A stretch of DNA of 64,000 bases from Candidatus Omnitrophota bacterium (GCA_035352955.1 DAOPYQ010000005.1:109231-173230); one strand, 5' to 3'; numbered from the stretch's first letter, positions 2,529 through 35,126 are shown. Notes: generated by a model from the sequence alone, not told the origin. A program made the numbers and translations.

Positions 2529-5500
2529 TTAAGCCGCCCGCGCGATCGATTCGCGAGCTTTCATTTCAAGGAATTTCTGGACCGCAACGCCCGAGATCAC
2601 AAACCCGCGTCCCGAGGCGTTCATTTCGATCAACTGTTCGATCCCCTGCTGTTCCGAACGGAACAACGCCTTCAAAAGTTCCGCTTTAAGAAGCTCCGGC
2701 TGCCGCAAAAGCTGCGGCTGCCTGGAAATAATATCCGCCAACCGGACCGCCGCGACCACTTCTAGAAGCGCCATATAATCCCGCACCAGCGCATTCCCCG
2801 CCGATTCCCCCGTGATCCTGTAGAAGACCTCGCGGACCATGCTGCCTTTCCCGGAGAAATTCGTCACGAACGGCACGACGGCCTGATCGTTGAGCGGACT
2901 GTACGAACCGTTCGCGGGGATCTGTCTCACGCGAACCCCTTTCGCCAAAAGTTCCGCGGGATTCAATCCGGACAGCCGTCCGCTGATCGCCAATTCATTA
3001 ACGATCGCCCCCCGCGTGTCGATTACTTTCATGAACTGGTTAAGCAGAACCTGCCCACGCTGAACCTCCGCACCCGCCGTCAGATCCAGCCCGATCGCAA
3101 GCCCGCGATCCTTCACATTCTCGAGATTTGCCAAAAGGACTTTTCGTTCCATGGAAATGACCTTCGCCACGGACGGATCGACTGTTTCCGCCATGATGCC
3201 GCTTTTCCCCGTCATCTCCGCGAACGCCGTCGGCACAAAAACATTATTAAAAGCATCCCACAATCTTTTCTCAACCCGCTCGACACCGTCTGAAAGGATC
3301 TCCGCCCTGAAAGCACGAACCGTTTCTACCGCTACTGGTTTCTGTTTTAACACCGTCTCCAGAACTGCGGCATAAACCTGTCTTTTTTCAGCACGCTCAC
3401 GGTCATTTTCCACCGTCGGTCCAACGACCGGCGAACGGACCGGCTCGGGAGTAGCAGCCTGGACAGCGCCGGCGGGGATCTCCCGGACGATCACGGCATC
3501 ATTTCCCTTCCCATGAGAGATCCTCTTTTCAACGACATAGTTTGATTCTGCCCCGGCCAGATCATTTTCAATCCCCTCCAGGCCCTTTTCCCACTTGCCG
3601 GTCAACAAAGTCCCCGCGAAGTAAGCCGCATGCCCCACGATCAAATCATGAGACGAACGAACGAAGGCAAGCTCCACCCGGAAGGTCGATTGCGTCTTTT
3701 TCCGCAACTGGACGATCTCCTCTAGCCGTGCCTTTGCCTGCTGCCTCAGCGACTCGATCTGAGGCACACTGGCCACGTGCGGCATCCGAATTTCGGCGCG
3801 AGAAGGTTTGGCACCCTTTTTTTCCTCAGCAAACGAGGTCTGACCCCTTTTGCTGTTTTCGGCAAGGATCGGCCATGGATTCCGGGCCGGTTCCGCGGGC
3901 ACTTTTTCCCAGGAATCAAGCTTCGGAAGGACCTGCCGGATCGCTTCCACCGGCATATCCGCGGGGATCTCGATCGTGTAATGCACGACCGAAGCCCGCT
4001 GTTGCACTTCCACGGCCTCCGGCCATTCTTTCGTGAGAGCCGCGCACTCTCCCGCATTCAAAACCCGGGACCGGAGGTTTCCGGAAACCGTCCGGGCGTC
4101 CCACCTCAACAAGATCCTCTCCGGCGTAATGTCCAGACGGCAACGGACGGAACGATCCGCCGATTCGATCGCGAGCCGTTCGGCAAGCATCTTCCATCCG
4201 AAGACAGGATCGCTTTCGGGAATCACGTCACCCGCGACACCGGAGCGCTCCAACGCCGTACGCGCCGCCGCGAGCGATTCCGGATAAGGCTTCGCCGGCT
4301 GCAAAAGTGCTTTAGGTTCCGTTAATCCCGTCTTGGGATCGACTTTAAGATGCAGGCTGGACGCCACCATCCGGTTCATCATGTCGGCGCGGACCCGGGT
4401 CCAGTCCATCTGCTCCAACTGGGCCAAGGGCGTCCTGCGGAGTTGATGAATCTCATAGCTCCAGGGCGAGAACTCTCTTCCCACATCCCTGACGCTGGGA
4501 TTCAGCCGCGCGAATTCCGATTCGAGTTCTCTCTCCATCCGGCTGATCTGTCCCTGAGCCGTCAAATACGGCCTGACACTTGATCCAAGATCTTTCAGGG
4601 TCTCCTGACTCTCCCCCAGCAAAACCTTGTTGACCCGTCCCTGGATCTCCTCGGACGAAAGCCAGTGGGAAACGTCTTCTCCCGTCTCTTCGAAGACTTG
4701 CTGCGCTATATCGTGTAGTTTGAAATCGAGCGGTTCATTCGCGATCGCCCGGATCTTGTACAACTCCGGAGGGCTAGGTTCTATTTGATCCGGTTTCGCC
4801 GGATCCATGTTCGCCCAATCCGAGAAATTCAACGCCGCGTCCCGACGCAAGAAAGCAATGTCAGGAGGTTCCATACCCATTTCCTTCGCGCTTTCAACCG
4901 CACACTGGGCTATTTTGTCCCAAGCCGGAAAGACCACGTTGTCGACATAATGCTTTTTAAATTGAACCGGAGTCCATCCGGCCGCTGCGGCGCGTTCGAA
5001 TTCAGCGATAGGATCCATCCTCAAACCGCTCATATCCGCTTCCGCGATCGTCCGAAAGACCGTCTCCCAGAGAGAAACCTGCTCCGGGTGGGTCATGGCG
5101 AGACGGTAGGGAAAGATCATATTCTCGGGCGTAAGCATCGCGTCCACTGCCATCGGGCCGGTCAACCCGGATCCTTTTTGCACAGCAGCGGCGGCAGCCC
5201 GGTATTCCGTATTGATTTGCTGTGTTACAGCATCCTTGAAACTGGAAATAAGACGGACAAGTTCCATTTTCGGGTTACGGGCCGCGACCTCGTCAAATTG
5301 GCGGATCAGCTGTGCGAGGCCCGAGGGCTGCGTCCGTGAAAAAACATTCACGATCGGCGTTTTTCTTGGATCGGAACCCATCGCCTGCATCAAAAGAGAG
5401 CCCAGATTCATGACCGGTCCCAACCCGCTTCCAAGATTTTCAAGGCCCGACGCAAGACTCGCCTCGGTCGCCCCGGCGGGCAACACGTTCGCGGCAGTCG

Positions 5501-8500
5501 CCGCGGCGAGCATCTGCTGCAGAAAATTACGCCTCGGGATCCCAACCCCCTCCCGCATCTCGGAGCGCCGATCTTTCTCTGCCTTGGCATTTTCTTCCTC
5601 TTGCTCGAGAATATTTAAAAAAGGTACCCATCTGGACAATCCTTGTTCGATCCGGTACTTTGAAACATCGAAGCCAAGGACGACGAGTTGCTTCAATAAT
5701 GCAGCCCTCTTTTCGAGGATCTGCGCCTGCATATCGGGATGCGGCCTGCTCATAGACGTCTCATGGAAAAGCCCCACCAAAAATCCCAGGTAAGCGGCCA
5801 GCTCTTCTAAAACCGGTTTCGGGATCACCCGGCTCGAAAGATAAAGCATCATGATTCCGCCATAGCTCAGGGTATCGGCATTGCTCAGAATTTCGATCAC
5901 GGTCCAGGAATAACGCTCGCCGACATGACCGTCCGCAGCGACCACCGCGTATTCGAGCTTCAGATCCTTCAAGAAATTCAACCCCGCCGTCACGAATCCA
6001 TCAGCGAACGCCTTGGCGGTACTGATGTGGAGTTTGCTCCTGACCTTCGCTTTGACGGAAACTTCTCTAGCACCGTCTTCCTCCCGCATCTCCGACCGGC
6101 CGGGGCCGGCAAGAATGGGCCACGGGCTGCGGGCTGTTTCTTCCGGTGTTTTTTTCAATTCCGTCGGTGCCGACGAAATCGACCGAACTTCCGTCTTTTC
6201 AACCGCTCTAAAAACCGGCCGTGCAGGCTTGGCAGAGACCGGCACAAAGCCCTTCGTTTCGCGCGACGCTTTACCGGCATAAAGATCATAGCGCCGGAAA
6301 AGGCTCTTAAGCACTGTCCGTTGGTCGATGGTCAGGTCCGGCGGCGCTTTGAAACTGGACCGGAGTCTTTTGACCACGACCGAGATCTCGAGTTGAGGGT
6401 CCGCCTCGATCTTCGCCAGAAGTTCCGGATTTGAGTCGACCTCTTCGAGGATCGTCCGGATCCGCTCAAAATACGGCCGGCCCATTTCCACGAGCTTCTG
6501 CCGTTTTTGCAGTTCATGCTCGCTCTTGCCAGCCGACGGGACATTTTTCTTGAGGTTCCGGTCATACGCCCGGATCACCTCGACAAGCGACTGAAGAAAA
6601 CCAATATTAATATAAGGTTTATGACGTTTCCGGTAATATTCCAGGCTCTTGTGAGCAATCTCATAGATAACAGACGCCGCCCCGTGCGGCCCGTGCTGCG
6701 CGTATCGGGACTCCATATCCTCAAGGACGCGAACGAATTCCTCGAACCGCTCCGCCATCATCCAAATATTCTCTCCTCTCCTGTCCGTCGCGCTGAACGG
6801 CGGGTGCCATACGCCGCCTTCCCGTCTTTCCGGACGAACTGGACTGGACTTACCGACTACGGACTGTTCCGATATTGATGTTTCGATCTCAGACAGGATA
6901 GCTTCCATTTTTTCTTGAAATTCCAGCGTCGCCTTCTGATAGTTCCGGAACGGCTCCTGCGTTGCGCTGTCCAGTTTATCTTTCACGAACTGCGCCATGA
7001 GCTTCAGTGTAGGTGACGTTTGAAAGCCATCCCCCGAAAGCACCGCGTCAGCCCAAGCTCGAAGCGTTTGCTTCTCCTTCCCGCTCCCGAACTCCTGGTC
7101 CGGGGCAAAGATCATTTCGATCTTTTCTTTAAGTTTGGCCATATCAAAGCGAATATCGCGCAAGCACATTTCTACCGTTTCACGGTCACCGGTTCGCAGG
7201 GAACGAAACAACGTTGCCTGGGCACCGCGAATATACGTCCCGTGACTTTTAAAAAAGTGAACCACACCGTCATCTGCCATGGACTTTCCGACAAGCTTTT
7301 CAAGCTCCTGTAGGAGCGCATCATGGGCTGCAGCGAAAATATCACATTGTTCCAAGACCCGAGTGGCCATCATCCTCAAATTCATCTCCCGCATTTCAGA
7401 TCGGACGTGGTCGTCAGAACCACGCCGAAGCTGTGCCGACGCGCCGCGCTTCTCAGCAGTCCCTGTGGGATTGGGAGTCGATGCGGAGCGGACGGGACCT
7501 TCCTCTGTCCCGCCGCGACTGTACCCAGCTTGACCAAAGCTGGGTGCAGAGCTTCCGGAAGACAAGGAATGAGCTTCGGCCGCCGGCGACCGGATTGAAG
7601 CAACCTCACGAATGCTTTCAAGTTCTCGTTTTAATTTCACAAAGTGGTCGCGTAACGCGAGGATCCAATCACGGTGGTTCTTGAGGATCGAAGCCAACTC
7701 GGCCTGTCCCCTTGGGTCCTTAAGGTAGTCGCATAATTCTCCCGATAGCTTTGAAAACGCCGCCTTTCCGTCAACCTCTTTCTCAAGCGTCTTCAGAAGT
7801 TTTTGCCGCTCAGGATCTTCCCGGAGGAAGGCGTCCAGGAATCGAACGCCCATCCCCATCTCAACGATACCTTTTTCCAAACTCAAGTCGTCGGGCGCAG
7901 GATGTTTTAGCTGCAAGTAAATAGACGAAAGGACATTGCTTACCCCTCCCATCAGCTCACGCCGTAGAGAAGTCTTTTGAAATCTCGCATCGGCAAGGAT
8001 ACCAACCGGATTATCCAAGGCTGCCAGAATGTCCTCCGGCGATCCCCCTTCGGATCTCACGGACACCGGCTGTTCCGGTACCTCCCGCAATTCGGAGCGT
8101 CCTGTCTTCAATTCGTGCGCGGGCGCACGTTTCTCCTCGCGCGCCGATGGCTGCGTTTGAGCGGGATCGCCTCCAATATGCTGGAAATTGAGAGGGATAT
8201 CGCCATAGGATGTTTTCAGACGCTTGGCCCAGTCCGTCTCGCGTGCCCCGAGTACCAGCGTCGCTCCGGTCTGCTTGGCAAAAAGCACAAGCGCCGTTTT
8301 CAGGATCTCCAGGAGGGTGCGATTGGAACCATAAAGATCGTCGACAACAACAACGCTGTTTTTTCCAGCTGCGACAGCGTCGATTGTTCCACTCAAGAAA
8401 TCGAGCACCGCTTGGAAGAAACTAACCCCGGCTCGATCGCTAAGGCCCTCAAAAAGCATGGTGTTGACCTCCGCGGAATCAAACCGGCTCCCCATCTTGA

Positions 8501-11500
8501 TACGCCTTACCGGCACAAAGAAACCGCGCCGGGCCCAAGGGATCGTTTTCTTAAAAAGCTTCAGGACCGCGCGAAGGTCGTCCATATTCTCCGCGGTCAC
8601 GATATTCGCCTCCCCGCCGCGCAGTTTTAATTGAATGACCCTCGGCGACGATTCTCCGGCCTTCGGCGGAAGCTCTGCTTCGATCTCAACGGAGTTTTCG
8701 TCATCGCTTTTTTCGGGCATCGCATAACCCAGCTCCGTGACCGCCAGAGCCACGCCATTCAAGATATCCAGATCGCGCAACGCCTTTTGGCAATTGGATT
8801 TGATCTCATCTGCAAAATAAGGCTCCTCTTCGTCCGGAATTTCTATTTCCGGGAAGAACCGGTTAACACCAAGTTTCTGCGAAATATCGCGAAGATCCTT
8901 CAATCGCTTCAGGATCTCCCTACCATCCGCCAACGATTCGATGGGGGTGGGCCTACGGCTCTGTTTTGAAAGGTCATCTTTTTTAAGTAATATAAAATGG
9001 TCATCTTTTTTGAGCAATGCCATGAACTCCCCGAGCTTGCGACGAAGCTCTTTCATGGCGGGAAGCCCCATTTTTCCCCGGAACGCTTGTACTTGTTCGA
9101 TCAACTCCTTAACCTTGATGTTCCTATAACGCTGGGCCGATAAGTACGCAATCCCGCCGAAAAAGGGGTCCTCGAAAGGCGAACCGAATCTCTCAGGACT
9201 GTAACTGTGAAAAGCAAAGTAACTTTCAGGAATGATCCCGTGGCCATGTAAAAGCGAATAGAATTTCGCGTCCGATTCACCACCGGGATCGAACCGGTTC
9301 CCTTGGGGCCTGATCTCCGGCAACGGCCCGGCTTTTCCGTTTTGCACAAAATCACGAGCCGCATCGAAAATAGCCTGAAACTGTCCGTTATCTTTCAACA
9401 CCTCGCGCGCTTCCAGGATGGAATGATCGCGGACATCCGCATCCCCCGCCTGATAAGGCCCCTTCGTGTAAAAGAATTTCAATTCACCCTGTTTATCAAC
9501 CGAGGTCAGCATTTTTTCCGCTCGGACAGGATTGTCAAATTCCTGCCGAAGCGATCCTTGCGCACTGGGCGCAAGGGCCGCCCGGACCTTCGCAGAAACC
9601 GAAGGATCGGCGAGCAATTGATCGACCGCTTCATGATGATGCGTCGCCGTGATCACGGAAGCACCCATTTCGATCGCTTTTTTGGAGCCTTGAAGAAACG
9701 CTTCTTCCGTCGCAAAAACTTCGTCGTGGATGAATAACGTATTGCGGCTCGCGTTATTGAGCCCGGCATCTTCGCCGGGACCGCGCGCGACAATATCCTC
9801 AAACCAGCTCGTCTCCAGAGGCGAAGGCACATACATCCCGAGACGCGCCATCACGGCGTACAGGGCGGCCCCCTTCAACAGAGTGGATTTCCCGGAGGCG
9901 TTGGGGCCCAACAAAGCCAGGAACGGCTTTTCGTTGGAAAGACGAAGATCATTGGGAACAAGTTCCGCCTTCACTTTAGCCGCATCTTCTCCCCGCTCCT
10001 CACCATCTTTAAGGCCAAGATAGGGATAAGTCAGCTGCGGCGCGTGGAAAGATCCCGGCTCGTCGATAAAAACCGGCCGTTGCCAGTTCTTCCGAACGGC
10101 CAGATCCGCCATGATCCAATAGAAATAAAGCTCGTCCGTGAAATTCTTGAGAAGAACTTCCATATCCGAATCGTTCTCAAGCGGTTCTGCCGCGAGCAGT
10201 TGCCCGAAACGGGTCCTGATGCGTTGATAGGCCGGCCCATCGAGTCCTTGCAGTAGGTTCCGGTTGTCGCGAATAACTTTCAGGACATCTTTCACATGAG
10301 ATTTATATCTGTTGTCAGGGAACTCTTCCCTATGCCTACCATATCTCCGCTTCGCGTTTAGGAACGGACGCGCGAAATAAAGATCTGTCAAAAAAGCCTG
10401 AAAGCGTTCGGAAAATTGCCGGTCAGAGCGGACTTTCCCTGCCATTTCTTCAATGGCGTCCAACCGTTCGAGCACCCGTTCGTGGCCCGGAAGCCGCTCG
10501 CTCGTGAGCATCTCGACATAACGGTAGAACGGATAACGGTATACTACTTCCCAATGTTCGATATCGGGATCGAGCGCTTTGACCCACTTTGAGAATTTGA
10601 TCCCAAGGAACTTCAAGAGACCGGAGGCCACCTTCTTCGCCAAAACAGGCTCGCCCGGTTTCGGGCTTTCCCGCATCTCAGAGCGAACGGTAGAAAGTTC
10701 TGCTGGGGTCTGAAGTTGAGAGATCAGGTCGCGGCTTTCGTAGACTCTATCCTGGCGCCAGACAAGTTCATCCTTGCGCCGATACAATTCCGTTTCCTGC
10801 TTGCGGAGTTCTTCAAGCACTCGCTCCTCGCGTTCCGCGGGATCCGCGCCACCGGCCCATTCCCAGAACCCGCGGTCTTTCAACGTGTAGACGCTGACGC
10901 CGGGCTCTTCAAGAAGCCTGATCCGCTCCCAAAGCGCCGAAAGTTCTTTCGCGAGAGAATCCAGCCCCTGTTTCACCAGTGACTCTTCGCGGTCGAGTTC
11001 TGAATTGAGCTGTTTGGCGTTGAAGGTTTCTCCTCTCTTTGCCCGCTCCTGCAGAGAATGCGGCCAATTCTGCGAGATTTGGAAAAAGCCCATAACCTTA
11101 TCAATAACATCGGGATTTACCTTCGAGAATTCCGCGAACCGTTCTATAGACAGTTCCGGACCGAGCAATCTCTGAACATGCCCGCGCTTTTGAATAAAAG
11201 CTCGAGCATCCCTGAAAATATGCGGTACCATTTCATCAAACAGCCGCCAGTCAAAACGTTGGATCCCAAAATAATCGTCGATCTGTCCCTGAAGTTCATT
11301 CACAAAGTCAAAACTGGCCTCCATGACACCCGGACCCATTCCGGAGAATCTGGAAACAATGTCACCAAGCGAGGCGGGACCGGAGAGCATTCCTTGAAGC
11401 ATGAATCCGCCAAACATCTGCATAAACCCGCGACGGCCCATCATGAGCCTGAGAGAATCCGCGGCAAAATCCTTGAGCCGGAGGATAGAGTCAACCGTCT

Positions 11501-14500
11501 CGCCCGTTTTCCTGCGAGATGTCCCGTAATTATCTTGCAGGGTTTCAAACACGAACGCCGCATTGGCTCCCTTGTAATCCCGGCAACGGTCGAAGAAGAT
11601 ATTCACGAGCTCTTCCCAGGTCAGCACTCCCGTCTTCTCCTTCTTTTTCCGTCCCTCCTCCATCGCCGTACGCGCTGCTTGATCGATCATCTTCTCGATC
11701 TCAAAAGAGACCGCCCCGTTTCCAACCGCGGAGGTTGGAAATGGTTCCCGCATCTCGGATCGGACGTGGTCATCAGGACCACGCCGAAGCTGTGCCGACG
11801 CAATAGGCGTCGGTGCGGAGCGCTTAAGATCCAGGATGTTCAAACGGTTGATCGTCATTCCAAAACGAAGATCCGTACTCTTTCTAACGGAGACCTCAAC
11901 TCCGCCTCGCGCGGCCAACCGGGTGATCTCACCAATGGCTGTTTCATCTTTCACCGCAAGATTGGAGAGGATCATGGTCGCCCGGTCCTTCATCGTATCG
12001 GTGATCTTTTTGATAAATGCCGCTTTCTGACTCTCCGGCACCGCGTCAAAAACATTGAGCAGCACATAGAAGCTATACGCGTTTTCGGGCAATTCTTCCT
12101 TTTCGAGAGAACGGAGCGTATCCGTAAAATGAATCCGATCGCCCACAAGGTCCTGACCAAAACGTCTTTGAATTCTTTCGACCGTCATCCGGTTCATCAA
12201 CTTGAGAACCTGGACATGGGAGGGATTCGGCTGGTTGATATCGACATGACTTTGATTCAAAGCGAACGGCGTCACGAATGCGTCTTCTACGCTGATCCCG
12301 ACCGCCAGCACGCGGTCTTCCGGCCCGGGACGAAGCGAATCGATGAACTCCGCAGCGCGAACCGCCTCTTCCGGCATCGATAGCTCGCGATAAACTTGCC
12401 CCGCCGTCATTTCACTCATCCCCCGCCGTTCCGCGCGATCATCCTCACCCACTTCGGAGACCGGGTCTCCGAAGCGGTCTCGGGCGCGGAGGACCGACTC
12501 GATCCCCTCATCGAGTTCGCGGACCTCCATGGCGAGAAGGTTTCTCTTGTGCTTCACGGCATCCTTCCTCCGATAGAAGTCCCTGCCCCATTTTCCGCGG
12601 AAAAAAACGCTTGCGTCGGAAATCGCGGAGCCCCGGTCCTTAAAAACACGCCGCAGAAAATCCATGTAGGGATCCTCCCCGGGACGATCCGCCCATCGGC
12701 TGAGAATCCGGAGGCTCGTTTTGTAAACGGGCAGCGGATTTTTTAGCGCGATCTCCAGCGCGGTCACAAGCATCCGTCCAAGCAGTTCCCCCGCCGCCTG
12801 TTTCCGCGGGCGATCGGTCTCCGCAGCGGCCACTTTGTCGGCATCCCGCACGAGGATCGAAACGATCCAGCTAAAAAGACCGGCGTCCCCGACCGAAAGG
12901 AAGAACCGGGCCACAAACCAGAAATTGCGCCGGATCTCCGGATCATCGAGATGCCCCATGATCACCTGGACCGGCGCGTAGATCCGCCGGGCATCTTTCG
13001 CGAACCGTCCGGCCTCGCCATACTTCTTCTTCCGCCTGCCCTCGGCATCTTTCTGGCGCTTCAAAAACTCCCGTATCACGGCAACGGCCTCATCCTTCCC
13101 GGTTTGGGCCACCCGCATAAACCCCTTGATCTCGTCGAAATATTTTTTATATTCCGGAGAACTGGCTTTTTTGTCGAGATCTACTTCGGCCTCATCTTCC
13201 TTCGAGAGCCCCTTTTCGCCGCGCCCTGTGCTGCGGCGCTCCGCGCGGTTAGCCACGGCTTCGCGCACCGAAGGCGGCATGATCGCCAGAAGCCCGAAAA
13301 CAACATCCTTCCCGTCGAATGAAAGAATCAACTGCCCGGGATCCCTCAGCCATCCGAAAGCCGCTCTGTCATCGTCAAGAGAAAGGTAAACAAATTCGAA
13401 AAAAAGGATCTTCAGGTCGTCCGAGGCGGCGGGACGGGTAGCCAGAGCGACGTCAAACGCCCGTCCCCGCGCCGCGGCATGGGACATCTCGCGATCCAGA
13501 AAGCGAAAGCGGCAATATTTCACGTGATAAACCTTCAGAAGCTCCAGAAGCCCTTCCGCAAGAGCGAACCTCTTTTCGATCTCGGCCAACGCCCGGTCGA
13601 TCTTTTCCCGGTTCCGGCGGACCGCCACAACAGGCCCCCGTTCCTTATCATGGGACAAGCGCACCAATTCTCTCGCAAGATCGTGGATCGGGACAATCTC
13701 GGGCTCGGAGATAAGCCAGGAAAATGAGGAAAGCCACCATGCGTTGGTCGAAAACTGCTGGTACTTTTTCTCCTCTGAAAGTTCCTGCCGCAGAAGATCG
13801 ATCTTCTCGCGGATCTCCTTGTTTCTCTTGGCGGCAAGTTCCAGCATGTCCCTCGCCCGGACCGACCTCACGCGTTCGACGATCCAGCGAACGTCCGGAT
13901 GTTCTTTCATCCGGGCAAATTCCGTTTCATAAACATGAAGTTGCTTCCGGAACAGATTCCACCAGGTTTCCGACTGCCACGGTTTTTGGGTCGGCCCGCG
14001 CCACACGAACCACGGCTTTTTCGGGTCCTTCTCATGAGCGTACTCCGCGACGCCCGCCTGAAGCGGCACGTAAAGAACATTGCGAAGTTCGCTTCCGGAT
14101 CTTTTTTCCATCGCCGGACGCCCCGCACCCGGTCCCTGCTGGCGAAGCTCGTGACGGCCCCTCACATTCCTCCAGGGATCATGAACCGGCGTCTTGGCTG
14201 CCAAAGCCCGCGCTCTCAGGAACTGATCCATACCGGACCAGGACTCGGGACGAATTTCCCCGAGCAATCCTCGCAGTTTTCCTAAAAACGGTTTCGGATA
14301 AACTTCGACGATATCGGGAATAGACGGATTTTCTGTCGCAAAAAGACGCCCGGGAGAGTCGCCGCTAAAAAAAACGCATCGATACCCCCCGATATCTCCG
14401 TAAGGCTTGACCTCAACCTTGACCCTCGTTTGGCCGCTGGCGGGATCTTTGAAAAAAACGTGCCACACAGCGTCATCCCTGGTTTCAGGCATCCTTGCAT

Positions 14501-17500
14501 CGTTCACCTCAAGCTTCATGCCCTTGGCGGACGCCACTTTTTCAAACTCCATACGGGGTTCCTTGGGCAAAGGTTTATTGCCAAGCTGGTGTTCCCACTC
14601 TTTTCTCCTATTCACCCGGTCCTCCCAGGCCCGATCAAGCGCGAACAAGACCACGAAAAACGAGGAAAGAAACGATACCTGCCGCACAAATTCCAGCGTG
14701 ACGTGCGGAAGCCTGAAATGCCCTTCCATGTAGACCCAAAAGGGATACCCGAACATGTACAACGCCGCAATGCCGCCGAGGATCAGGCAGGACTTGATCC
14801 AGATACTGCCGGTGCGCGAAGACGCACTAACGGAACCCTCCGGACCTCCCTGCCGAAGTTCCATGCGAGCAAGCGTTCCGAACATCGCGTTAACCTTCTT
14901 TTCCGCATCCCTGGCGTTCTCATAATCCGGCGACGGGACCAATAGCTGGGCCTGCAGGGCCTTTTTGATGATGGTCTCGACGTAGGAAGGCTCCCCTTTT
15001 TTGGAGCTAAACACCATTCGGAAATAATCTTTCGAAACCTGCCGCGGAAGCCCCCGTCTCCGGCCATCCGATCCGAACACGTCTTTGATATCGGAAACCG
15101 GAAAAGCCCTCCCGCTCAAAAGGATCGCCAGTTCATTGAGAAAATCGTCCCACCGGCGAAGGCGAAGGAGGGCAAGGACAAAAACAAGTTGTTGCCCGGA
15201 GATCATCTGGGTGTCCGGAGTGTAAAGCTGGATCCCTGTCAGAGCCCGCGCCATCCACCCAAGGACTTCTCCCGTTTGCGCATGAAGCCCCATCGCTTCC
15301 AGACGGAGCAGGAGCGCCCGGCATTTATTGAACGCATTCCAATAGGCGAGCGATCTTTCCTCGACACCAACCACCGCCGCCGCCATCCGCAGATCGCGTT
15401 CCGTCATCTCCAGTTCATCGATCACGCGTTTTCTCAGGGACTTGTAACGGAGGATGATCTGCTTTTTCATTATTTGGGCAAGATGGGCCCGGTAAACTTC
15501 CGCTTTCATCAACCCGGCGCTGTTTTTCTCGAATTCCTTGAAGAAATCAAGATTGATCTGCTGCCGCGCGGCTTCAGTCGCCTTAAAAATATAGTCCGGG
15601 TCCTTCCCGCGGTATCTTTCGAGCATCCGCCGGTGCTGGATCACCCATCGCTGTCCCGTGCGCAGCGAAACCGCGAGCTTTTTGATATCCTCCGGATTCT
15701 TTTCGTCCAAGGAATCCAGATAAGCGCTCGTATAATTGAACGCGTTGATCTGACGTTCGCTCTGAAGGACCCGGGCGACATTCCGTCCGGCATCCGCGAT
15801 AAAAAACGGCAGTGTCGCCTCACAAACCAGCACCACGGCATACTTGTCGAAATGCTCCATATCCGCCCGCAGTTCTTCATCGTGCAACTTGTCGGCCTGA
15901 GCTACCAGCAGATCGCGCGCCGCCCGGATCTTCCGGATCCAGGAAGGATCCATGGGAAGATTCGGATTTGTTTTATCCGCCATCGCATCATGCATGGCCT
16001 TGTATTTCGCGACCGCCGACGGACTCCCGAATGCAATCCCCTTATTGGCAAGGCGGCCCGTAGCCTCTGCGCGCGTATGGTAAGAAACATCCTTCCGCGC
16101 GATCTCAAGCGGAGGCTGGAGCGCCATGATCAAGGCATAGAACCTGGAAAAACAGACCTCCAGATCGGTGCTGAGAAAGAAGAGCATCAACCCGTAAAAG
16201 TCGGCGGAGGCCTTGGCCGTTCCCGGCCCCCGTTTGATCCCCACAAGAAGCTTGCCCAGCTGCGGGTCCCAATGGCCCAACCTCCGGCGCAACGATTCGA
16301 CGCCCTCTTTTTTAAGGATGTCCCTACAGAAATCAATGAAGGGCCCGGTCCCGCTAAAATCACCGGCGATGCGTTCGAAAAAAAGCTCGAAAAGCGGTTT
16401 GTAAAACACCTCCCCGTATAAAGAAGGATGGTCCATGATCACGGAAAGGAACGATTCTTCGCCCGAGGAACCGCCTTCTCTCAGGGAATTCTTGAAACGA
16501 AAAATAAAATTCCAAAGGTCCTCCGCCGCATGAACCGCCTTGGCCGTTTCATCGGGAAAGTGAACCGCGCCGTGAACATTTTCATAAGCCTGCAAGGTCT
16601 GCCGGAGATAAACGTCGATTTTTTCGATCAATCTTTTAATATCAAGGATTGCGGCCCGTTCCGTCCCGCCCCGGGAAAGATCTTCAAGAAAAGGCGCGAA
16701 TTCTTTTTTCACTTCCCCCCAGTCTTTCAAAAACCCCTTGAGATCCTCGATCCGGCTGTTCCGCAGAAAGAGCGTGAAAAAGATCGTGACATCCTGCAAC
16801 GACTCCCGGATCTTTAACGGATCACTGTTCCCCCGGGGCTTCAGATCACCCAAAAGCCTCGAAATCTCCTGGATCTGATCTTCAAGCCAGTCTAATTTCA
16901 TCTGCTCCGGGGATTGATACTCTCGCCTTTCCTTCAGCCGACCGGAAGTCCGGACCTCCGCGCGGCTCTCTCTTCGGGACTCGCTTTCCGCCGCCTTTGC
17001 GTAGGCCACGGAAACTTCTTGGGCGGTAGGAAGCGGCCCCTGTTTCTTTTCATGATCCGTCTTTATCGAAACCAGGGCAGCCTCAAGCGCCTGAAACCTT
17101 TGCCACGCCTGACCGATCTTTTCGATGAAAGCGTTACGGTTGGCTTCCGCTTCAGGGGCTTCAAACAAGACCTCGTAAATAAAATATTCCGCCTGCTGAA
17201 CACGGTCGAGCGCCGTCTCCTTCGTCGCGCCCGCTCCGGGATGAGGCACATTCACGGGCGTATGGATCCCGTGCTTCGCAAGCGCCTCCGCGATTTCTCC
17301 GTGCGACTCCAGGATCTCCCGGATCGCTTCCCAGGCGATCAGCGAGATCCGGAGGTCCACGCCGTTCCTGGTCTGGGCATACTCCGACATCGATTCGCTC
17401 AGGATCGTGGCCGGACCCCGGACATTGTGCGATACCCATGCCTCCCAACTGACCGGTTCAACCGTTTGGTACGAAGTCCCGTCGAGTCTCTTTTTTGCGA

Positions 17501-20500
17501 CCTTGCCCCACACCGTTTCCCGGCTCAGCGGGGTCAACTCCGCGAGCGGGACAAAGACCGCCCCAAAGTCACCCAGGAACTTCTCAAAATCAAGATAAGC
17601 CTCGATCGCAGCCGCGATCTTGGGCCAGGCGTTATAAATATCGAGAACGGCTTGCTTGAATTTTTCATAGTCGTTCCCCGGAAACGCACGGTCGGAATTA
17701 AACGCGAGATTCATAAGGTACGGGGTCAGGTCCCCGTAAGGCACGATGTCGGTTTCGCGGTACTTCTGCAAAACGGAGGCGCGTGACCTGAAATCCAGAT
17801 TCAAAACGTCCCGGAGCCTGGGCTCAACCTCGGTCTGTTTCTTGCGGATCGCGTCAAAATCTTCCCGTATATCCGCAAGCGTCTGTGATTTTGTTTTGGG
17901 CGACAAATATTCCAGCTCCTGCAACGCATAAAAGATCCTGTTTGTCCGGCTCGAATAGGTCCCCTTCCCGTGTTCCCAAAAAAGATCTCCCACATCCGGG
18001 AAAAACACCTTGCCGTCTTTTTCGGAAAGAACATCCCCACGGATACCGCTCAGGGCGCGGATCCGTTTCATTAATTCCACAAGATAATCCCACGCGCCTG
18101 AGGCTCGTTTAAAAAGGTCCGGCTCGTTCCAGTCCGGTTCGAGAATGAGCTCCGCGGATCGAAGTTCAGCCCTGTCGAGATCCGGTTTTAGATTGCCCAA
18201 CTCGAAAGCTTTGCTTTCTCCGGTGGCCGGAAAGTTGACCGGGGTCTCTGGTCTCTGGTCTGCGGTCTTAGTTTTCAACCGGTTCATGTGATGATGAAGA
18301 GCGACGTCGAAACTCTGGCGGACGAGGCGAACGTTCTTTATCGCCCCAACGCCAGGATCCGTCGCCACAGCTGAGGCAAGCTCGTCTTCCAGAACTTTGC
18401 GAGTCCCTCTCACCGCATCCGCAAAATCATCCGCATAGGCTGCTCCGTCGATCTTCGCAAGTAATGCTGGAAGGGTTGCCGACGATTGAATCTTCGCAAA
18501 CAGCTCGCTCACCCTCGGATAGAGAAGCGCTCCTTTTTTATCCTTTTCCCTCGCAAGGGCCGAGATGTGTCTCTCCATCCAAACGGCGAACGGCCGGACG
18601 GCGGGTGAAATGGCGGCGTGCTCTTTCTTTACGGGAACGAACGCGAACGCCTCGACCTCGACAAGCCAGTTCGGCCGGCACACGTCCCCGATAACATAAA
18701 TGATGGGAATATCGGGGAATTTCTTATCCACCGCTTCCTGGATAGCCGCCGCATCTTCGGGCCGTTTGATATAGACGCGCAGCTGCGGGATATCCTTGAG
18801 GTCGCCCATGCGCTGCGTGAGCATCATCCGCACGCTGTCGATCATGTAGAGGGTTTGACGGACCGGATCGCCGATGTACATCTCGGCCTGGCCCTTGGTC
18901 GAGGCCGTGCCGGAGATCAGGACCATTTCGTAACCGGGAGTCACAACCGACATCGCACGCGACCAAAGCGGCGGCTTTTTGGTCTCAAGCGCCTTTTCCT
19001 GAACAACGATCGTATATTCATCGGGGTTCATCTGCCGTGCGCTTTCAAGGCGGAGCGCGTGGACGTTGCTTTTTTTTGCGACAAAGGCGAGCGCCTCCAT
19101 CACGATAGAACCGCTCTTGTCACGTAGCGTCCCGATCCCGGTCGACGCGGGAGGTTTGCCCAGATTTCCACCTTTGATCAGCCCTTCCCCGAACGGGATC
19201 GATTTCCCGTTCATCGAGGTCATAAAGTAATCGTAGCGCGGATTATTGATTCCCCACTGGTAGTTCCATTTTCCCTCGGCATCGTAATCAACGATATGGT
19301 CCTGGTAGAACCAGGTGCGGAGCACTTGCCGGTAATCGAGAACAAAATCGGGGCCGACTTTATCAAGTTGCTTCAGCTTGGCTTCGGCTTTCTTCAATTC
19401 AAGGTAGGTCTTTTCGAGGACATTCCAACCGCGGTCGTAAGTTTTGGTGATCGAAGGATCGGGTGTGATGCCGCCGACATAAACCTGGAACAGATCCGCA
19501 TCCTCGAGGATCGCGCTGTGTTCGCTGATGCGGAGCACCTGGTTCGGCTCAGGGACATATCGACTTTCGTCATCCTGAGCGGAGCGAAGGATCTGAGATT
19601 CTTCACTCTCTCCACGTCGGGGCTCAGAATGACGGGACGAACCCATCGCCACGATCTCGACTGTGAACATGCTTCCGTCAGCAGGAGTTTGTTCGAGATA
19701 CGTCGTGACCGGAGGCTCGACGCCCGTGCCGTAATATTCCCGCAGGGCTTTTTTGATCTTTTCGCGGTCCGCGTCCGTGATATCCCCGAACGAGATCACC
19801 TGTTTGAAGATGTCATCCTTCCTGATCTTCTGTTCCGCGATCAAACGGTCAAGATGCCCGATAACGCTTGCGATCTGTTCCTCCGCCGTCTTCCCTTCCG
19901 ACGGCATCACGGAGAAAAACACCTGCCGTTTCCCGTTCCCGAGTTCCACCGCCTTGGCGCGCGGCTCCATTTTGAGAAGTTCTTCATTGATCGCCTCACG
20001 GGACAGCAGAACCTCAGAGGCCACCCCGGTCGCGATCGCTGCGCCGGAAGACCGGACAGGTTCGCTGTTTCGAATTTCCGCCCGAGCCGGGATATCCTGC
20101 CGGGCAAGATCGTCGAGAGTCGGGACCACCGGAAGATCCTTTTTTTCGAAGCCCTGTGAAAAAGCACTCTGAAGGTCCTGTTGTGTCTTCGGGTCAAGCG
20201 AAAGGTCCTTCGGGAATCCGTGACGGACAAGGAAACGCGCGAGCCTCACCGCGTCAGCGTAAACCTTCCGGTAGTCCTGCGCCACGAGATGCTTCCCGGA
20301 TAAAATGGGCGTCAGAGAAAGCTTCTGTCCCGACTCGCCCGGAGAGACGATCCCCGCCAGGACGCCAAACCCATACTTGGGCGTTTTAATATCGGTATGG
20401 AGTCTGATCTTGTCGATCAGCGCGTGCTCCGGCCGGTACATCTGCGGGGAAGTTCCGATCGTAAGCGTGTCCCCCGCCACCCGCGCATTAAAAATAAATG

Positions 20501-23500
20501 TTCCGTTCCCGGCGGTCATCCCCCCGAGCGTCTTTTGGATCGCCTCGTCCCCCACAAGAGCTTTGTCCTGGTCATAGACCCGGACCTTCCGGAATCCGCC
20601 CCGAAGATCTGCGCTCCGCCACAGGCCGGGGATCTGCAGGAAAAGAGAGATCACGGCATCCACTTTGCTCGCGGGAGTCACCGTACTTTCCTCGGGAGAT
20701 CCGATCCAGACATCCACGACCTCGACAACTTTTCTTCCAAATTTTCGCAGCCGGCTAAGAAGGTCCGTATCAAACGCAAAATCGACCGTGAAATCCGGGT
20801 CCAGGTTCCAGTCCTCGTCGACGGGTTGGATCTCGTCGAGGGCTTCGCGCGTGAACGCCTTGAATCCCTGCTGAGTGTCACGAATACGCCAGAAACCGAG
20901 AAGGACCTTCGTCAGCATGTTATAGATAAAACTGCCTCGCCGTTCCTCATCAAGGCGCCCGTAAACGATCGCTCCCTTGCGCCACCGCGAACCGATGGCG
21001 GCATCCGCTTCCCCGGAAGCAAGCTTCTCCAGCAAAAGCCCGGATTCCGCGAGCGACACGGCACGATCCATGTCCGTGAATATGAAATACTGTTTTAACG
21101 CCTTCAGGATTTCCATGAGCTTGCGGAACGCAAGGACAATCCCGCTCCCTTTTTTTCCGCCGATACCGTCGTTCTGGTCCTTATTCACGAACCAGACCTG
21201 CACCTGCCCGGACTTCAGCTTCTGGGGAAACATGTCCTTGAGGATCTCGAGCGCGACCTGGCCGGAGCTCTTTTCGCTCTTGATCTTTGGCTGCGGGACG
21301 TCCCCTTCAAGTTTTTTACTCTGGAGGAATCCGAGAACTTTTTTAAGCAACGGCCGGACCCAAAAAGTCAGGAAGGCTTTGTACCACTTCAAGAGAAAAG
21401 AGCCTTCTTTTCTCTCCGGCAAAAGGTTGAACCTCAGTTCGTCCGCCGGATTGCTCAGATCCATGGAGCGCTCGCCGTCATCGGCCAGCAAAAGAACGTA
21501 CCGGACATTCGAATTGACGGAAAAAAGTTCGTCAAGCTCCCGGATCTTCCAGACAAGCGCGTCCTCGCCGTTCGGATTCTTTTCCGCCGAGAACGGCCGC
21601 AGGCGGTTCTGTTCCCCGTACATCGAAACGGCAATGCCGACCTCGATGGGGTCGCCGGTGCGCGGCAAGCGGTAAACCGCCAGGAAAGACCGGATCAGCC
21701 GTTCGGCTTCCGGCAAAAGATCATGGAGCTCGGCGTCCTGCGCGAGCATGCCGTCCAGCATCGCGGCGCTCTCATCAGCACGGGGACCTTTGAGAAGCGT
21801 CGAAAGCGCGGCCGAGATCACCGCCATGCGGTCTCTGGCCTTCTTCGTATCAAGCGGCCCGAGCCGGTCGGCGTGCCAATTCATCCTGAGGAAAAGCCCT
21901 GAGGCCAGCCGGTCGACCTCCCCAAGATAGCCGTCGCGCAGCGGGTTGTCCTTGATCCCGTTCTCGAGCATCTGCGAATCGGGCATGGCTTTTTCCATCA
22001 AATCAAGCGCGCCCTTCAAAATCGCGCGGGGCCGTTCGCCCTTGGCAAGGATTTCCACTTCTTCGTCATACCGGATCCCGAGCGACGCAAGCTGATTTGC
22101 GGAAGACATCATTTTCATCCCGCTGTCCCCTTTCCGGATAAAAAGATGGACCCCGGTTTTCGCCGTTATTTCCGACGCCAGATCGGCAAGGATCTTGCTC
22201 GGCCGGATATGGATATCATTTCCGTTCAAGACATGAAACGTCCGGCGCATCTCCGGCCAATTTTCTTCCAGGATCCCCCCGCCGAAAATGACCTGCGGAA
22301 ACCGGGGCGGGACCTCCGGCGTCCGGAGCTCGGAACGAGGGGTGACACGGAAAAACGTCTGGGGGGGGAATGTGAACCGGACCGTCGTCTTGTGCCCTCC
22401 GGTTCCCGGCGGCAAAAATTCCATTTTTCCGCCATGACCTTCGACCACGGCACGAACAAGGGCGATCCCTCCCCCATGAGATTTAAAACCAGCTCTCGGA
22501 AAAATGCCTTCTTTGACAGAATTCGGAACGATCGTAAATCGGCCCGCCGCGTCGATAACCTTGGAAATCCCCACGCCATCGTCATAAACTTCCCATAGGC
22601 CATCCCCATTTTCTGCTTTGCCCGCGCGAAATCCGATCAGACCCTGCTGACCGGCCTGAGCCTGGGCATTCAGCCCGTTGGCCGCCATCTCCCGAACGAT
22701 CCTGAGAGGCGTCCATTCACGGGTAAGCGCATCAGCTAAAATGATCTTCGCCATGGAATCTTCTTCCTCGTCCGGCAAAAGATCGGAAAGAGCTTTCCTC
22801 AGGCCGTCGTCAGACCATCTTTTTGTCCAAAAAACATTAAACTCCGTCTGGGTCTTCGCCACGAATTCATCGAGAAGTTTCGATAAACTTTCTTCCGTAT
22901 CCTGCAAGGTCGGCGCCGGCCGTGGCGATACCGTCTGATAGATCACTTCTTTCATTTCAACGGGGGGCTCTGCCTTTTTCCAGGGGACTTGCGGCCCGAG
23001 CTCTTCCAGTTTTGCTTCGACCTTTTCAAGAGATTGGAACGTAAACTTTTCTTGGGCACGGCCCTTCCCCTGCGTTGAAAGAACGAACTTTGTGCCCCAG
23101 AAGCCCCCGCGGGAAATGTCGATTTTGATCACAAACTCTTTTGCCGACCCCATCGACAACCGGAAAGGATCCTCGGGATTCCCTTTCTTCCTCTTCGTTT
23201 TGGCATCCTCGGGATCCTCCTGTTCACCGTCCCTCACCTTAGATTTTTCAATCGCGATTTCCTCGGGATCCTGCGAAGCTTTCCCCGTGAATTTAGCGAT
23301 ATGGGCATAATCAGGATGCACCGAAAGAAAAGAGAAAAGACCGGCCGCTTCGCTCTGGAACCCGGTGTTCAGCGTTATTTTGTAGACGTCCGTCAGCTGC
23401 CGGTCCGCCGCAGCGCCAAGCACGGAGCGAACGGATTCTTCATTCCCAAACCATTTCCAGAACCGCTTTGAGAGATCGGCTAGCGCTTCGGTCCACGAAA

Positions 23501-26500
23501 CCTCGGGCTGGGCCATTCCGGCCGAGAGGATCTTTTCAGTGCGGGCGCGATAATCTCTCATCATCTCCCGGCCCCGTGGCGTGTGCGCATAGACCTGTTC
23601 GGCCATCTCCATGGTAAGGATTTCGCCGATGATGTCGGCGATCCCCTCAAGCGACTCCTTCTCATGGGACCCTCTAACAAGGACTTTCACAATAGCCCCG
23701 GGGTCCGTGTTCAGATTAACCATTTCGGTGGTTTGTGCGATACCGATCTTTTTATGGGTCACCGGATCGACCAGCTGAACCTCGATGCCCGAAGGAGCGA
23801 ATACTGTTTCCCCAAGTTCTTTCAGCAGACCCGCCGCCGGCGGCATATGCCACCCCTCGGGCCCGACGGTAAAATCCCGCGCGATCTCGCGCTTTTCCGC
23901 GCGATCAGCCCCCGCCCCGGTTTCAAGACCCGGTTTTGACACGAGGGAATCTCGCTTTTCTTTCCGCGTATCCCAAAGATCTTTCGGCCAGAGTTTCAGA
24001 ACGCCCTCTTCCGGAGCCTCAAGGTAAAACCCGTCAGGCATCGTGGGCCAGACTTTTTCAGCCCCCACCATCCGGCGTAACAACCTGCTTACATCCTTCC
24101 TCGCAAAGTTGATCTTTCCGGACGTTCCCACTTGCAGGTTCACGGCCAGCGCCACCATGAGCCCCATCAATTGGGAAGTTTTAGTTTCACGGAAGCCGTA
24201 TAAACCCGCCTTTTCTCCGTTCTGGATCAGGAGCCGGTCGCGGGCGGTCCTCCATTTTTCTGAAAAAACGTCCAGACGCATGACGCTAATATACGGATGT
24301 CTTTCCGCTGCCGGCAACATCACAAGGGGCTTCCCCTCAAATTTCTTACGAAGCCCCGGCGGTAGCACAAGCACCGAATCCTTTGTGAGACGCACGAAAC
24401 CCTCCGTAGCCGGTGCGGCTTCCGGGAGCCGCTGAGACACCGCATCCGGGATCTCCTTGGAAACGGTTGTCTTCGCCGCCAACGATGCCGCTTCTAATTT
24501 TGCCGCAGCCTTCGGATCGATTTCACGGAGCCGGGCAATAAATTCCTCCCGGGTGCCGGGCTCCCCGAGCACCATCCATCCTAAAGCGATCTTTTCCTCA
24601 TCCGACAGCGGTCTCGACGCACGGACCTCCGAGCGGCCGAGCGCCCGGGGGTTTTTCACAGCGGCCAAAGCATTCCCCATCACCGTCTTTTCTTCGAACG
24701 GGACGCCCTGGATGAGGTCCCGGAAATCCCGGAAGAACTTCTGCCCGAGATGCATCATCGAGAACCGCGCGACCTTTCCGCGATAATCGCCGCCCAGGGC
24801 CCACGGCTCATAACGGATCGCGTTCTCGTCCAAAGCCCGTTCCGCCAGGCCGATATGCTTATCCGTCAGAAGCGTCAACGCCCGTCCGACGATCTCACCG
24901 GCCCCATCGTATTGGTAAGTCTTACGGAACTCGAGCCATTCGGTCTGGAGATCGTCCAGGTAACGGGCGTTCTCCGGGTCCGCCTCGAGACCTTTGAGAA
25001 GCGCGGGTCCATTCACATCGCTGACAGGATCACGGCGGTAACCTTTCCCATCGGGATCGCTCCATAATCCGATCCCCGTCCTTATGAACTCCTCTTTTCC
25101 GGTGCGCATGAGGATCTTCAAGGCTTCGGTATCCGTGATCGAAGCGATCCTGCCTTTTCCATCCTTCTTGAACGCCTTGGATTCAAGCCAAAGGAGATAC
25201 CCCTGATCAACGGGATTGGCCGCATAAAGGTTCAGCATCATCATCTCGCGGACGCCCGCGAAATAATCCCGGGGCAATGCCTTGAGGATTCCGAAGACCT
25301 TTTCGAACCTTTCACGGCCCTTCAAATAAGGAATGGCATCCACCGCGGCGCGAAGTTCTTCCGCAAGTCTGAAATAGAATTGCCCGCTTTTCAGGCTGTC
25401 TTGGCCATCTTCCAGGAGACGCGCGACAAGATCCATCGCTCTTTCATCGCCGAGTTCCGCGAGCGCGAGCAGTGCCGGTGGCATGATGGCCGCTTTGTTG
25501 CCGGCATGCCCGTTCAATTCGCTCCCGTCCCAATAAAGGACCGAACGCTGGTAATCCGCGTCAAAATCAACGGCTTTCCAGAGGACTTTCGTCGTCTTCG
25601 CATCCGAGATCCCGGAGATCCCAAGCGCCTCGATGGCTCTCGCCTTGATCCACCAATAGGTCGTCGCCTCCGGACCCGCTAGTTGCAGAAGCCGCTCATA
25701 GATGCGTTTGTCTTTTTTTGCCAGTTGACCGAGGCTTTTCGTGACCGTTTCGCCCAACTCGGCGAATGGCCGGTAAGCATCATCAAAACGCTGTTCTTTA
25801 TCCTGCGCGGCCCGCCATCCGGCGTTGGGGGAAAATCCGAGCAGCTCAAAGAGCCACGGCGCGTACTCCGCAAGCCCTTGCTCCCCCGCCATTTCGGCCG
25901 ACATCTTGATGAGCGGAATGGCCCATTGCACCGCCTGATCGCTGTAATAACTGCGAGAAAGCCCCTTCGGGATGATCTCAAACCAGTCGGAATCGAAGAC
26001 CCCGAACTTGTCCATGCCGTATTCCCTGGAAAGCGGCATGAAGGTCTCGATAATGAACTTCGCGACCTCCGGACGCGCCGGCATCAAAGCGCGGAGAGCG
26101 TAAAGGATCGGATCGCCATGGGCCTCGATGCTCGACATCTCCCGGCACATGAGAAGGAGCCGCATGAGCCGGAGGACCTCTTTGTAGATCTTCTGCCGGG
26201 GGACGGCGGGATTCAGACGCTCGGAGATCTTATCGAGATATTGTCCGAGACGGTTCATCCGGTTCAGGACCATCCGCTCAAGGCCCGCCTGTTTCGCGAT
26301 CTCTTTTTTGGGAAGATGCAGCGTAATGACCGTTCCGGGGACCAGCGTCTTGAAAACCCTGACGACTTGCGCGGAAAGAGGCATAAGTCCCGAGGCGCCC
26401 TCCAACAGCGCCCTTCCCCCCGGGGTCTCGCCTTCCGCTTTACGCGCGTCAAAGGCCTTGCGGCTTTCCCAGGAAATAATATATTTCTCGTGATTGGAAC

Positions 26501-35105: not shown

Positions 35106-35126
35106 CCTTCATCCTCCATCCGGTTT

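Follow-up and report, generated by a model that had tools for sequence, protein, structure and literature searches.

The window described here, the whole 64,000-nucleotide (nt) stretch of a Candidatus Omnitrophota bacterium (GCA_035352955.1, DAOPYQ010000005.1:109231-173230), carries on its minus strand a 30.9-kb open reading frame (ORF; 2529..33437) that encodes a giant protein of 10,302 amino acids (aa), composed of a conserved head and a variable, multi-module body. A five-residue motif, R-[SA]-E-[MLIV(A)]-R (R-[SA]-E-Φ-R in the following), recurs along this body at the junctions between modules, and may represent a processing site of a bacterial polyprotein. The gene is called identically on a 178-kb JGI contig and in the NCBI metagenome-assembled genome (MAG) GCA_964411105.1, and the organism belongs to the Omnitrophota, because the UvrC encoded in the window reaches 77% identity with its counterparts in MAGs of that phylum. 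Pfam detects only scattered domains in the giant ORF, namely LMWPc, PPDK_N, DnaJ, HEAT, HATPase_c, HPr, L-PSP and a MutS_V-like P-loop.

The initial annotation of this sequence had drawn attention to an RSEMRE peptide recurring at module boundaries, and every copy that it listed, that is RSEMR(E/T) at six sites between aa 2072 and 9291, is indeed present, together with the longer AQLRRG(P/S) peptide at aa 7215-7231 and 8668-8684. Its positions hold except for trivial offsets (9114 instead of 9115, and RNPWPILAE from 9852 instead of 9851), but its list was incomplete, as the consensus yields 15 strict copies, from aa 1096 to aa 9880, to which three relaxed ones can be added (Table 1). RSEMR was observed six times against 0.007 expected from composition and RSELR four times against 0.03, and these two are the most enriched k-mers of the giant protein; none of the window's other five frames contains the motif. 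A J domain and a twin-arginine (Tat)-like motif had also been reported to follow copies of the peptide, and both placements are real. The segment behind copy 9291 contains P-R-R-N-F-L-Q, as compared with the Tat pattern of S/T-R-R-x-F-L-K ahead of a hydrophobic stretch and an A-x-A-type end, a resemblance of sequence only, with no Pfam TAT_signal match. These two cases are nevertheless anecdotal, as signal- or transmembrane (TM)-like segments are not enriched after the motif, and the idea that modules generally open with a signal peptide or TM helix was rejected (6/80 versus a 5.4% background, p=0.27). Another short peptide repeat, AR[S/N]PWPILA, occurs in two copies only, at aa 9102-9110 and 9851-9859, with PWPIL itself at 9105 and 9854. 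The two copies are 749 aa apart and share ~78% nt identity over 27 nt; the first of them includes 1.5 units of a GTGGCCC heptamer.

Table 1. Positions, in window numbering, of the motif copies and of other features of the giant gene and its surroundings.
Feature	Window position	Strand	Remark
Head, aa 1-750	31188..33437	-	probable TIKI/TraB/EreA/ChaN-superfamily hydrolase; invariant D122-x-H124, E152, R503, G532-G-F-H535
N-terminal hydrophobic signal/anchor, aa 22-40	33318..33374	-	from hydropathy scan; basic n-region ahead; kept in all heads
RREAR (relaxed), aa 761	31143..31157	-	directly behind head, where most relatives carry their first strict copy
RSELR, aa 1096	30138..30152	-	42 aa ahead of LMWPc domain
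RSELR, aa 1454	29064..29078	-	
RSEMR(T), aa 2072	27210..27224	-	J domain aa 2081-2143 (window 27009-27197) begins 4 residues past motif end
RSEVR, aa 2935	24621..24635	-	
RSELR(T), aa 3701	22323..22337	-	between HATPase_c aa 3579-3693 (window 22359-22703) and HPr aa 3731-3815 (window 21993-22247)
RAEIR, aa 4452	20070..20084	-	
RAELR, aa 5089	18159..18173	-	
RAEVR, aa 5492	16950..16964	-	
RMELR (relaxed), aa 6191	14853..14867	-	Gly/Pro-rich linker
RHELR (relaxed), aa 6428	14142..14156	-	Gly/Pro-rich linker
Long linker copy 1, aa 7213-7231	11745..11801	-	includes RSEMR aa 7226 (window 11748-11762)
RSEMR(E), aa 7585	10671..10685	-	upstream of MutS_V-like ATPase module
RSELR(E), aa 8447	8085..8099	-	
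Long linker copy 2, aa 8666-8684	7386..7442	-	52/56 nt identical to copy 1; includes RSEMR aa 8679 (window 7389-7403)
RSEMR(E), aa 9114	6084..6098	-	ARSPWPILA just ahead (window 6108-6134)
Module aa 9120-9290 between RSEMRE copies	5568..6080	-	homologous along its whole length to stand-alone P0003 (179 aa) and to internal segment of P0002
RSEMR(E), aa 9291	5553..5567	-	followed by twin-arginine-like segment (window about 5460-5549)
ARNPWPILA second copy, aa 9851-9859	3861..3887	-	two-copy peptide repeat
RAEIR, aa 9880	3786..3800	-	last copy
Heptanucleotide arrays	31197-31224, 31255-31279, 31587-31613, 31866-31888, 32035-32062, 32571-32601	both	
Heptanucleotide arrays, continued	32732-32761, 33098-33127, 35045-35069, 35095-35121, 37086-37114	both	

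Relatives were collected in two ways, with ~3,300 aa of each covered: about 50 Omnitrophota loci were fetched with UvrC as an anchor (the synteny set), and an alignment of the head was used to scan metagenomes for another set, independent of the first. A very long ORF lies directly downstream of uvrC in 11 of the synteny loci, and 10 of these 11 carry multiple copies of RSE[MLIV]R. Within this set, 69 copies were found in 43,928 aa of giant ORFs as compared with 2 in 183,430 aa of other ORFs, and one of these two background copies belongs to a frameshifted family member (locus L013). The metagenome set added 52 proteins, whose bodies (96,508 aa) contain 191 copies; all 59 matches scored there as background lie in large, immediately adjacent ORFs on the same strand, and the remaining ~99,000 aa contain none. 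The combined set holds 329 copies in 188,270 aa, from 73 non-redundant family proteins or fragments, against about one copy per ~280 thousand aa in unrelated neighbour ORFs. The distance from the head to the first copy is usually 4-120 aa. The family spans 2,000 to >10,000 aa, but many of its members are complete at just 2,000-4,200 aa, and the motif is therefore not strictly a feature of giant genes.

Per-position spectra show that R1, E3 and R5 are near-absolute, position 2 prefers Ser to Ala (Ala in 68 of the 329 copies), position 4 accepts M, L, V, A or I, and the flanks are unconserved. In addition, position 4 shows lineage-specific preferences, in that all copies read RSELR in L020 and L111, and the preferred form is RSEVR in L050, RSEMR in L024 and L132, RAEVR in L046 and RSEAR in L124, as expected of a site that co-evolves with one reader. 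Literature searches on the pentapeptides returned unrelated strings only, a search on 'Omnitrophota' with 'polyprotein' gave nothing relevant, and neither West-Roberts et al. 2023 nor Nielsen & Lui 2026 mentions the motif or a TraB/Tiki domain; as far as we can tell, the motif is undescribed in the searchable literature.

Several individual loci deserve mention. Short ORFs of ~1,200 aa downstream of uvrC, present at six loci, were considered as 'unfused' versions of the family and discarded, since five of them are unrelated and have neither head nor motif, and the sixth (L013) is a frameshifted member. In the latter (11595-17280), the ORF with the head (1,128 aa) overlaps a second ORF in a different frame, in which the protein continues with three additional copies; this reflects either an assembly error or a real inactivation. 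Tandem arrays were seen at L098, L113, L112, L108 and L126, where large adjacent ORFs on the same strand have no visible head and contain up to 13 copies; the L108 neighbour contains RAEAR five times, and the body of L108 itself contains none. At L102, a single in-frame TAG (11173-11175) parts a head-bearing, motif-free ORF from a head-less ORF of at least 1,971 aa with 3 copies, and this stop codon could be a sequencing error, a real gene boundary or a site of read-through.

The copies are placed at module junctions. None of them falls inside a Pfam domain in the seven proteins scanned, and in the window domain edges lie a median of 37 aa from a copy, as compared with 159 aa for random placement (P=0.037). 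The flanks of the 329 copies are disorder-prone, with a median propensity at the 80th percentile (z=13); the residues favoured just ahead of the motif are Ser, Ala and Pro, and those just after it Ser, Thr and Glu. In the giant ORF of L006, RSEMR is followed at aa 1852-1880 by a run of at least eight serines, and SSSS is strongly enriched there, forming a low-complexity linker beside the motif. Whole domains fit within inter-motif segments, such as MarC (966-1153) between copies 937 and 1210 in L006 and a methyltransferase between copies 661 and 891 in L046, and RpiA of L010 ends 33 aa ahead of a copy. Furthermore, all four homology blocks shared between or within bodies start or end at a copy: the blocks at L020 2700 and L022 1269 both begin 2 aa ahead of their own copy, L006 has a tandem 366-aa module of which both copies end in RSEΦR, and in L008 a homologous block (751-1119) is bracketed by RSEAR at 755 and 1114. 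The median spacing of the 329 copies is 310 aa (interquartile range 144-461); an apparent near-lack of intervals below 100 aa held in the first 12 proteins and was overturned by 36 doublets in the combined set. The initial annotation had cautioned that copies might miss domain boundaries or lack homologues, and thus be low-complexity chance; neither doubt survives, because the motif sits at module junctions and homologues carry it, with no copy inside a Pfam domain, blocks that end at the motif and hundreds of copies in related proteins.

The body in which these junctions lie is highly divergent. Bodies share no detectable similarity past ~aa 750 (window 2529-31187 compared with L006, L007, L008 and others), despite heads that are ~50% and UvrC neighbours that are ~70% identical. 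Genome and metagenome scans with body segments found no relatives, and an exhaustive HMMER search of 1.84 billion representatives with aa 8400-9599 returned, apart from a fragment of the protein itself at a contig end (P0001), two weak matches only. Judged from its sequence, the body of the giant protein is thus an orphan. Both weak matches fall on the interval between copies 9114 and 9291: P0003, a complete protein, aligns from just after the former to ~14 residues before the latter, and P0002, an otherwise unrelated multi-domain protein of 1,398 aa, contains the same ~170-aa module, with a conserved F-x-TAGLNFG, beside a nucleotidyltransferase-like segment. The module is thus a mobile domain, as it is found in three architectures. 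A 28-bp inverted repeat, 93% identical and possibly due to chance, also lies in the coding sequence (giant ORF nt 13288-13315 and 20016-20043; ~aa 4430 and 6681).

Conservation of the motif acts on the peptide. Alignment of orthologous sites (105 comparisons) gives 60-66% identity at R1, E3 and R5 and ~30% in the linker flanks, a roughly twofold difference in conservation, and the pentapeptide is under purifying selection while its surroundings drift. Arginines are encoded by CGN as well as AGR, serines by TCN and occasionally AGC, and glutamates by GAA or GAG at about the same frequency, and Ala can take the place of Ser; these mixed codon families and the Ser/Ala exchange point to selection on amino acids. 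A codon bias of the form CGY-TCY-GAR-NTG-CGG is also present and may reflect common descent of the copies. The two long linker copies had been described as ~46/51 identical in DNA with unrelated flanks, which slightly understates the repeat: the 51-bp core is 46/51 identical, with four of the five differences synonymous and one exchanging Pro and Ser, and the full repeat covers 56-57 bp including the preceding Ala-Ser codons. The 90-bp flanks are identical at 32/90 and 28/90 positions (31-36%), that is, at random level.

The only part common to all family members is the N-terminal head of ~700 aa, in which a basic n-region and a hydrophobic anchor precede a domain with the motifs LIQDAH, ALEG, GELSGAAAASVL, GIEDW, RE/RD, GGFH and MxGxVSW. 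D122-x-H124, E152, R503 and H535 are invariant in 55-56 of 56 heads (24-54% identity), a level that 5% of the columns reach; position 121 holds Q or E, Asp instead of Glu provides the first acidic residue, and E152 lies 28 residues after H124. The TIKI branch of the TIKI/TraB/PrgY/EreA/ChaN superfamily includes sequence-specific endopeptidases, and examples from the superfamily are the Wnt protease Tiki1, the Ras/Rap1 endopeptidase RRSP, and TraB/PrgY. To our knowledge, no member processes its own polyprotein. Active members use a 2His/2Glu set, with E3900, H3902, E3930 and H4030 in RRSP, plus R4001 for substrate recognition, and H85/E113 in Bcr135 (PMC6254334). The His-to-Glu spacing of 28 residues is the same in the head, RRSP and Bcr135, the correspondence being one of order and spacing. 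Because of this spacing and of the invariant catalytic-type residues, the head is read as a probable, catalytically intact TIKI/TraB-type hydrolase, with moderate confidence in the fold assignment.

The head also differs from the superfamily by a ~300-aa helical insertion between the core halves, by its sub-threshold Pfam score and by its fusion to thousands of cargo residues. No family hidden Markov model exceeded its curated threshold on the heads, PF04187 (ChaN/Tiki) being the best; it matched 3 of 11 heads, over the C-terminal GGFH region only, at 12-17.7 bits where the cut-off is 27.7. NCBIfam returned nothing for the head, a PDB profile search gave a spurious match only, and Foldseek against the PDB gave nothing significant. 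An AlphaFold model of the head, built on a shallow alignment and with a mediocre predicted local distance difference test (pLDDT) of 61, has an alpha/beta core that is split by the helical insertion. A Pfam scan of the giant protein found no other peptidase family.

A motif that is specific to this protein system, lies at its junctions, is kept at the peptide level and co-occurs with the head calls for an explanation, and we rate the chances as about even that R-[SA]-E-Φ-R marks where a bacterial polyprotein is processed, with the head as the probable enzyme. According to this model, the motif would act as a short linear recognition sequence in the flexible linkers between modules, where a site-specific endopeptidase would cut at or next to the pentapeptide and free modules about as large as ordinary proteins. 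For this enzyme the head is the prime candidate, and it would free itself first at the site just behind it, then act on the remaining sites and on the head-less, motif-bearing proteins encoded next door. As motif-rich head-less proteins adjoin head-bearing genes, recognition must also be possible in trans. The same short sequence stands at most junctions of independently folding units, as in self-processing polyproteins in general. The processing-site proposal of the initial annotation accordingly gains a motif beyond chance, a junctional placement and homologues that carry it; cleavage itself stays a supposition.

Several points weigh against this model. Three elements of the model are inferred, namely that cleavage follows recognition, that the enzyme is the head, and the cellular location of the processing. 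The head lies behind a signal/anchor and maybe outside the cytoplasm, and many of the modules (DnaJ, HPr, PPDK) look cytoplasmic. The 36 doublets, with members less than 40 aa apart, have no obvious role if there is one cut per junction. L007/L087, L108 and L120 retain intact head residues and have no strict copy in ~3,000 aa, only RSETR-type variants. In addition, some members of the superfamily are not proteases, as ChaN binds haem and the Ere enzymes are esterases. A more far-reaching version of the processing model is offered tentatively and is, in our view, somewhat less than evenly likely: the Omnitrophota would possess self-processing polyproteins on a scale new for cellular life, with a TIKI/TraB-type endopeptidase at the N-terminus that recognises a five-residue code. 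Acting in cis as well as in trans, this enzyme would divide chains of 2,000 to >10,000 residues into at least 12 ordinary-sized enzymes, membrane proteins and export substrates, and the code would also mark the limits of the cassettes exchanged between genomes. Each lineage would then carry a different cargo behind the same head, and by analogy with MARTX toxins the modules might be effectors for a host or prey cell.

The main rival is a docking or recognition motif that is never cleaved and is bound by the head, by a chaperone or by an export or assembly machine, for example for stepwise feeding of a huge chain through a translocon or for holding modules on a scaffold. This idea accounts equally well for a selected linear motif in exposed linkers, the doublets suit avidity better than cleavage, the giant protein has an N-terminal signal/anchor, and TIKI-fold proteins include binders rather than proteases, such as ChaN (PMC6254334). 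Binding, however, does not require sites at the ends of units that equal stand-alone proteins, or of shuffled and duplicated modules, and the head keeps the full catalytic His/Glu/Arg/His set, whereas the binder PMT has lost its catalytic set (PMC6254334); we therefore regard docking as rather unlikely. Regulation of the modules by a post-translational modification at the motif, for example of Arg or by phosphorylation of Ser, is suggested by the basic-x-Ser-acidic look of the motif and by the HATPase_c, HPr, PPDK_N and LMW-phosphatase domains of the giant protein. As Ala is frequent at position 2, accounting for nearly all copies of some proteins (RAEVR in L046, RAEAR in the neighbour of L108), phospho-Ser is excluded as the common function. 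A modification site of any kind seems very improbable.

The remaining rivals place the function in the nucleic acid. The initial annotation had offered, beside processing, a recombination joint used to shuffle cassettes, and cassettes do move, because bodies are dissimilar behind 50%-identical heads and modules recur elsewhere or in tandem. The motif could then be the footprint or substrate of in-frame cassette swapping, with the peptide as a passenger, and both the codon bias, which hints at common descent, and the long linker pair, a 56-bp direct repeat that is 93% identical with its copies 4.36 kb apart, would suit this idea; the pair could mark the insertion of the intervening 4.36-kb block or mediate its loss. 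It is, however, the sole pair of recombination length. The other copies share amino acids and not DNA, that is, 15 nt only, with free third positions and the codon-family and Ser/Ala exchanges described above, so that homologous recombination at most copies is disfavoured because the shared identity is too short. There is also no inverted-repeat or att-like structure, orthologues keep R, E and R as the flanks drift, and the differences within the long pair itself are mostly synonymous. A recombination joint thus fails as a general explanation and is improbable. An RNA or translation signal, with the position-4 codon as an internal start or a structured RNA giving separate products, fares worst and is considered extremely improbable. 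As many as 62% of the position-4 codons are NTG (ATG, GTG, TTG, CTG), and some downstream sequences (the J domain and the Tat-like signal) resemble native N-termini, but 23% of these codons (GTT, GTC, GTA, CTT, CTC, CTA) cannot initiate, Ala (GCN) occurs as well, a Shine-Dalgarno-like core lies upstream of just 12 of 69 copies, and the variation is confined to wobble positions, as protein-level selection predicts. A translated ribosome binding site plus start codon was accordingly rejected as the source of RSEMR. The 57-nt long copies contain a GUGGUC…GACCAC stem, but a functional RNA hairpin was likewise discarded, since they do not fold significantly better than shuffled sequences (z of only -1.7 and -1.9).

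Short recognition sequences at each junction of unrelated products, read by a protease within the precursor, are characteristic of viral polyproteins, such as those cut by picornavirus 3C, flavivirus NS3 or pestivirus Npro, and an N-terminal protease that frees itself first is a known arrangement there. The present system differs in that it is a cellular, chromosomal gene next to uvrC and murJ whose module content is hypervariable between close relatives and whose cleavage is presumed. In the MARTX toxins of Vibrio and relatives, an in-protein protease processes the inter-module regions and thereby releases effector modules (PMC6315884), and the MARTX effector RRSP itself has the TIKI fold (PMC6254334). 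MARTX toxins resemble the giant protein in being very large single chains with an array of unrelated enzymatic modules, a likeness of architecture with cleavage on the present side again presumed, and their module repertoire varies between strains via recombination. In contrast, Pfam scans of the whole giant protein found neither RTX/haemolysin-type repeats nor C80, the cysteine protease activated by inositol hexakisphosphate (InsP6); here a TIKI/TraB-like domain at the very N-terminus is the candidate protease, the linker holds a strict five-residue motif instead of being loosely defined, and the family, of ~2-10 thousand residues or more, occurs in free-living or episymbiotic Omnitrophota with head-less substrates encoded alongside.

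Giant proteins of the Omnitrophota, including the multi-enzyme class of 'Archaeovorins', were described by West-Roberts et al. 2023 (10.1101/2023.11.21.568195) and by Nielsen & Lui 2026, the latter with 5,761 proteins of at least 10 thousand aa. Archaeovorins come from the same phylum and likewise have, behind an N-terminal signal or TM segment, a mosaic of HEAT, PPDK_N, HATPase_c, methyltransferase and other domains, with largely unique sequences. The present gene differs from them by its TIKI-like head, by its housekeeping neighbours instead of genes for type II secretion (T2SS), type IV pili (T4P) or polysaccharide import, by its length (30.9 kb as compared with >90 kb) and by relatives of only 2-4 thousand residues. 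Other Omnitrophota giants carry N-terminal C39 or S8 peptidase domains, from which the authors suspected processing at cleavage points that were unknown to them and whose lack blocked even structure prediction, and the published V. archaeovorus proteomics was too sparse even for coverage (10.1101/2023.11.21.568195).

In the window, uvrC lies directly upstream of the giant ORF, followed by murJ, rpsT, holA, lptE, a bamD-like TPR gene, comEC, a GH35 gene and leuS; further neighbours include a glycosyltransferase gene, mnmA, rsmH and similar genes. The order comEC, bamD-like TPR gene, lptE, holA, (rpsT), murJ, uvrC and a large head-bearing gene is kept across many Omnitrophota genomes (window 33606-44171; loci L001 and L006-L050), and the last slot of this block is taken by an unrelated ~1,200-aa gene in five genomes. 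Eleven tandem heptanucleotide arrays of ~3.3-4.4 copies each also lie within 6 kb (window 31197-37114), in the 5' part of the giant gene that encodes the head and around uvrC and murJ, and the other 58 kb of the window contain two weak period-7 arrays only. Each array has its own unit, including TTTAGGG, GCCACGG, CCATCCG and CGGATGA, and those within the head encode insertions of 7-10 aa in variable loops, for example RGPWPVARG. The same phenomenon is seen with other units in L006 and L007, such as (AGTACGG)x4, which encodes VRSTEYGVR; the assemblies L001 and L002 are identical to the window. Since a change of one unit would shift the reading frame of the gene, the arrays may form a phase-variation switch or be the trace of an unusual mutational process.

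To conclude, whether the products of Omnitrophota giant genes work as single megadalton chains or are cut up is a recent puzzle, and the pentapeptide is the first concrete candidate for the cut sites, which gives an experimental handle. The processing model predicts both the boundaries of the products, with at least 16 segments in the giant protein, and the catalytic residues H124, E152, R503 and H535. If the motif turned out not to be cleaved, it would still be a new and highly specific linear motif. If it is cleaved, enzymes of 'cytoplasmic type' that form part of apparently exported giants would in fact be set free as individual proteins, and the polyprotein strategy, which so far is typical of viruses and a few toxins, would extend to normal chromosomal genes of bacteria.

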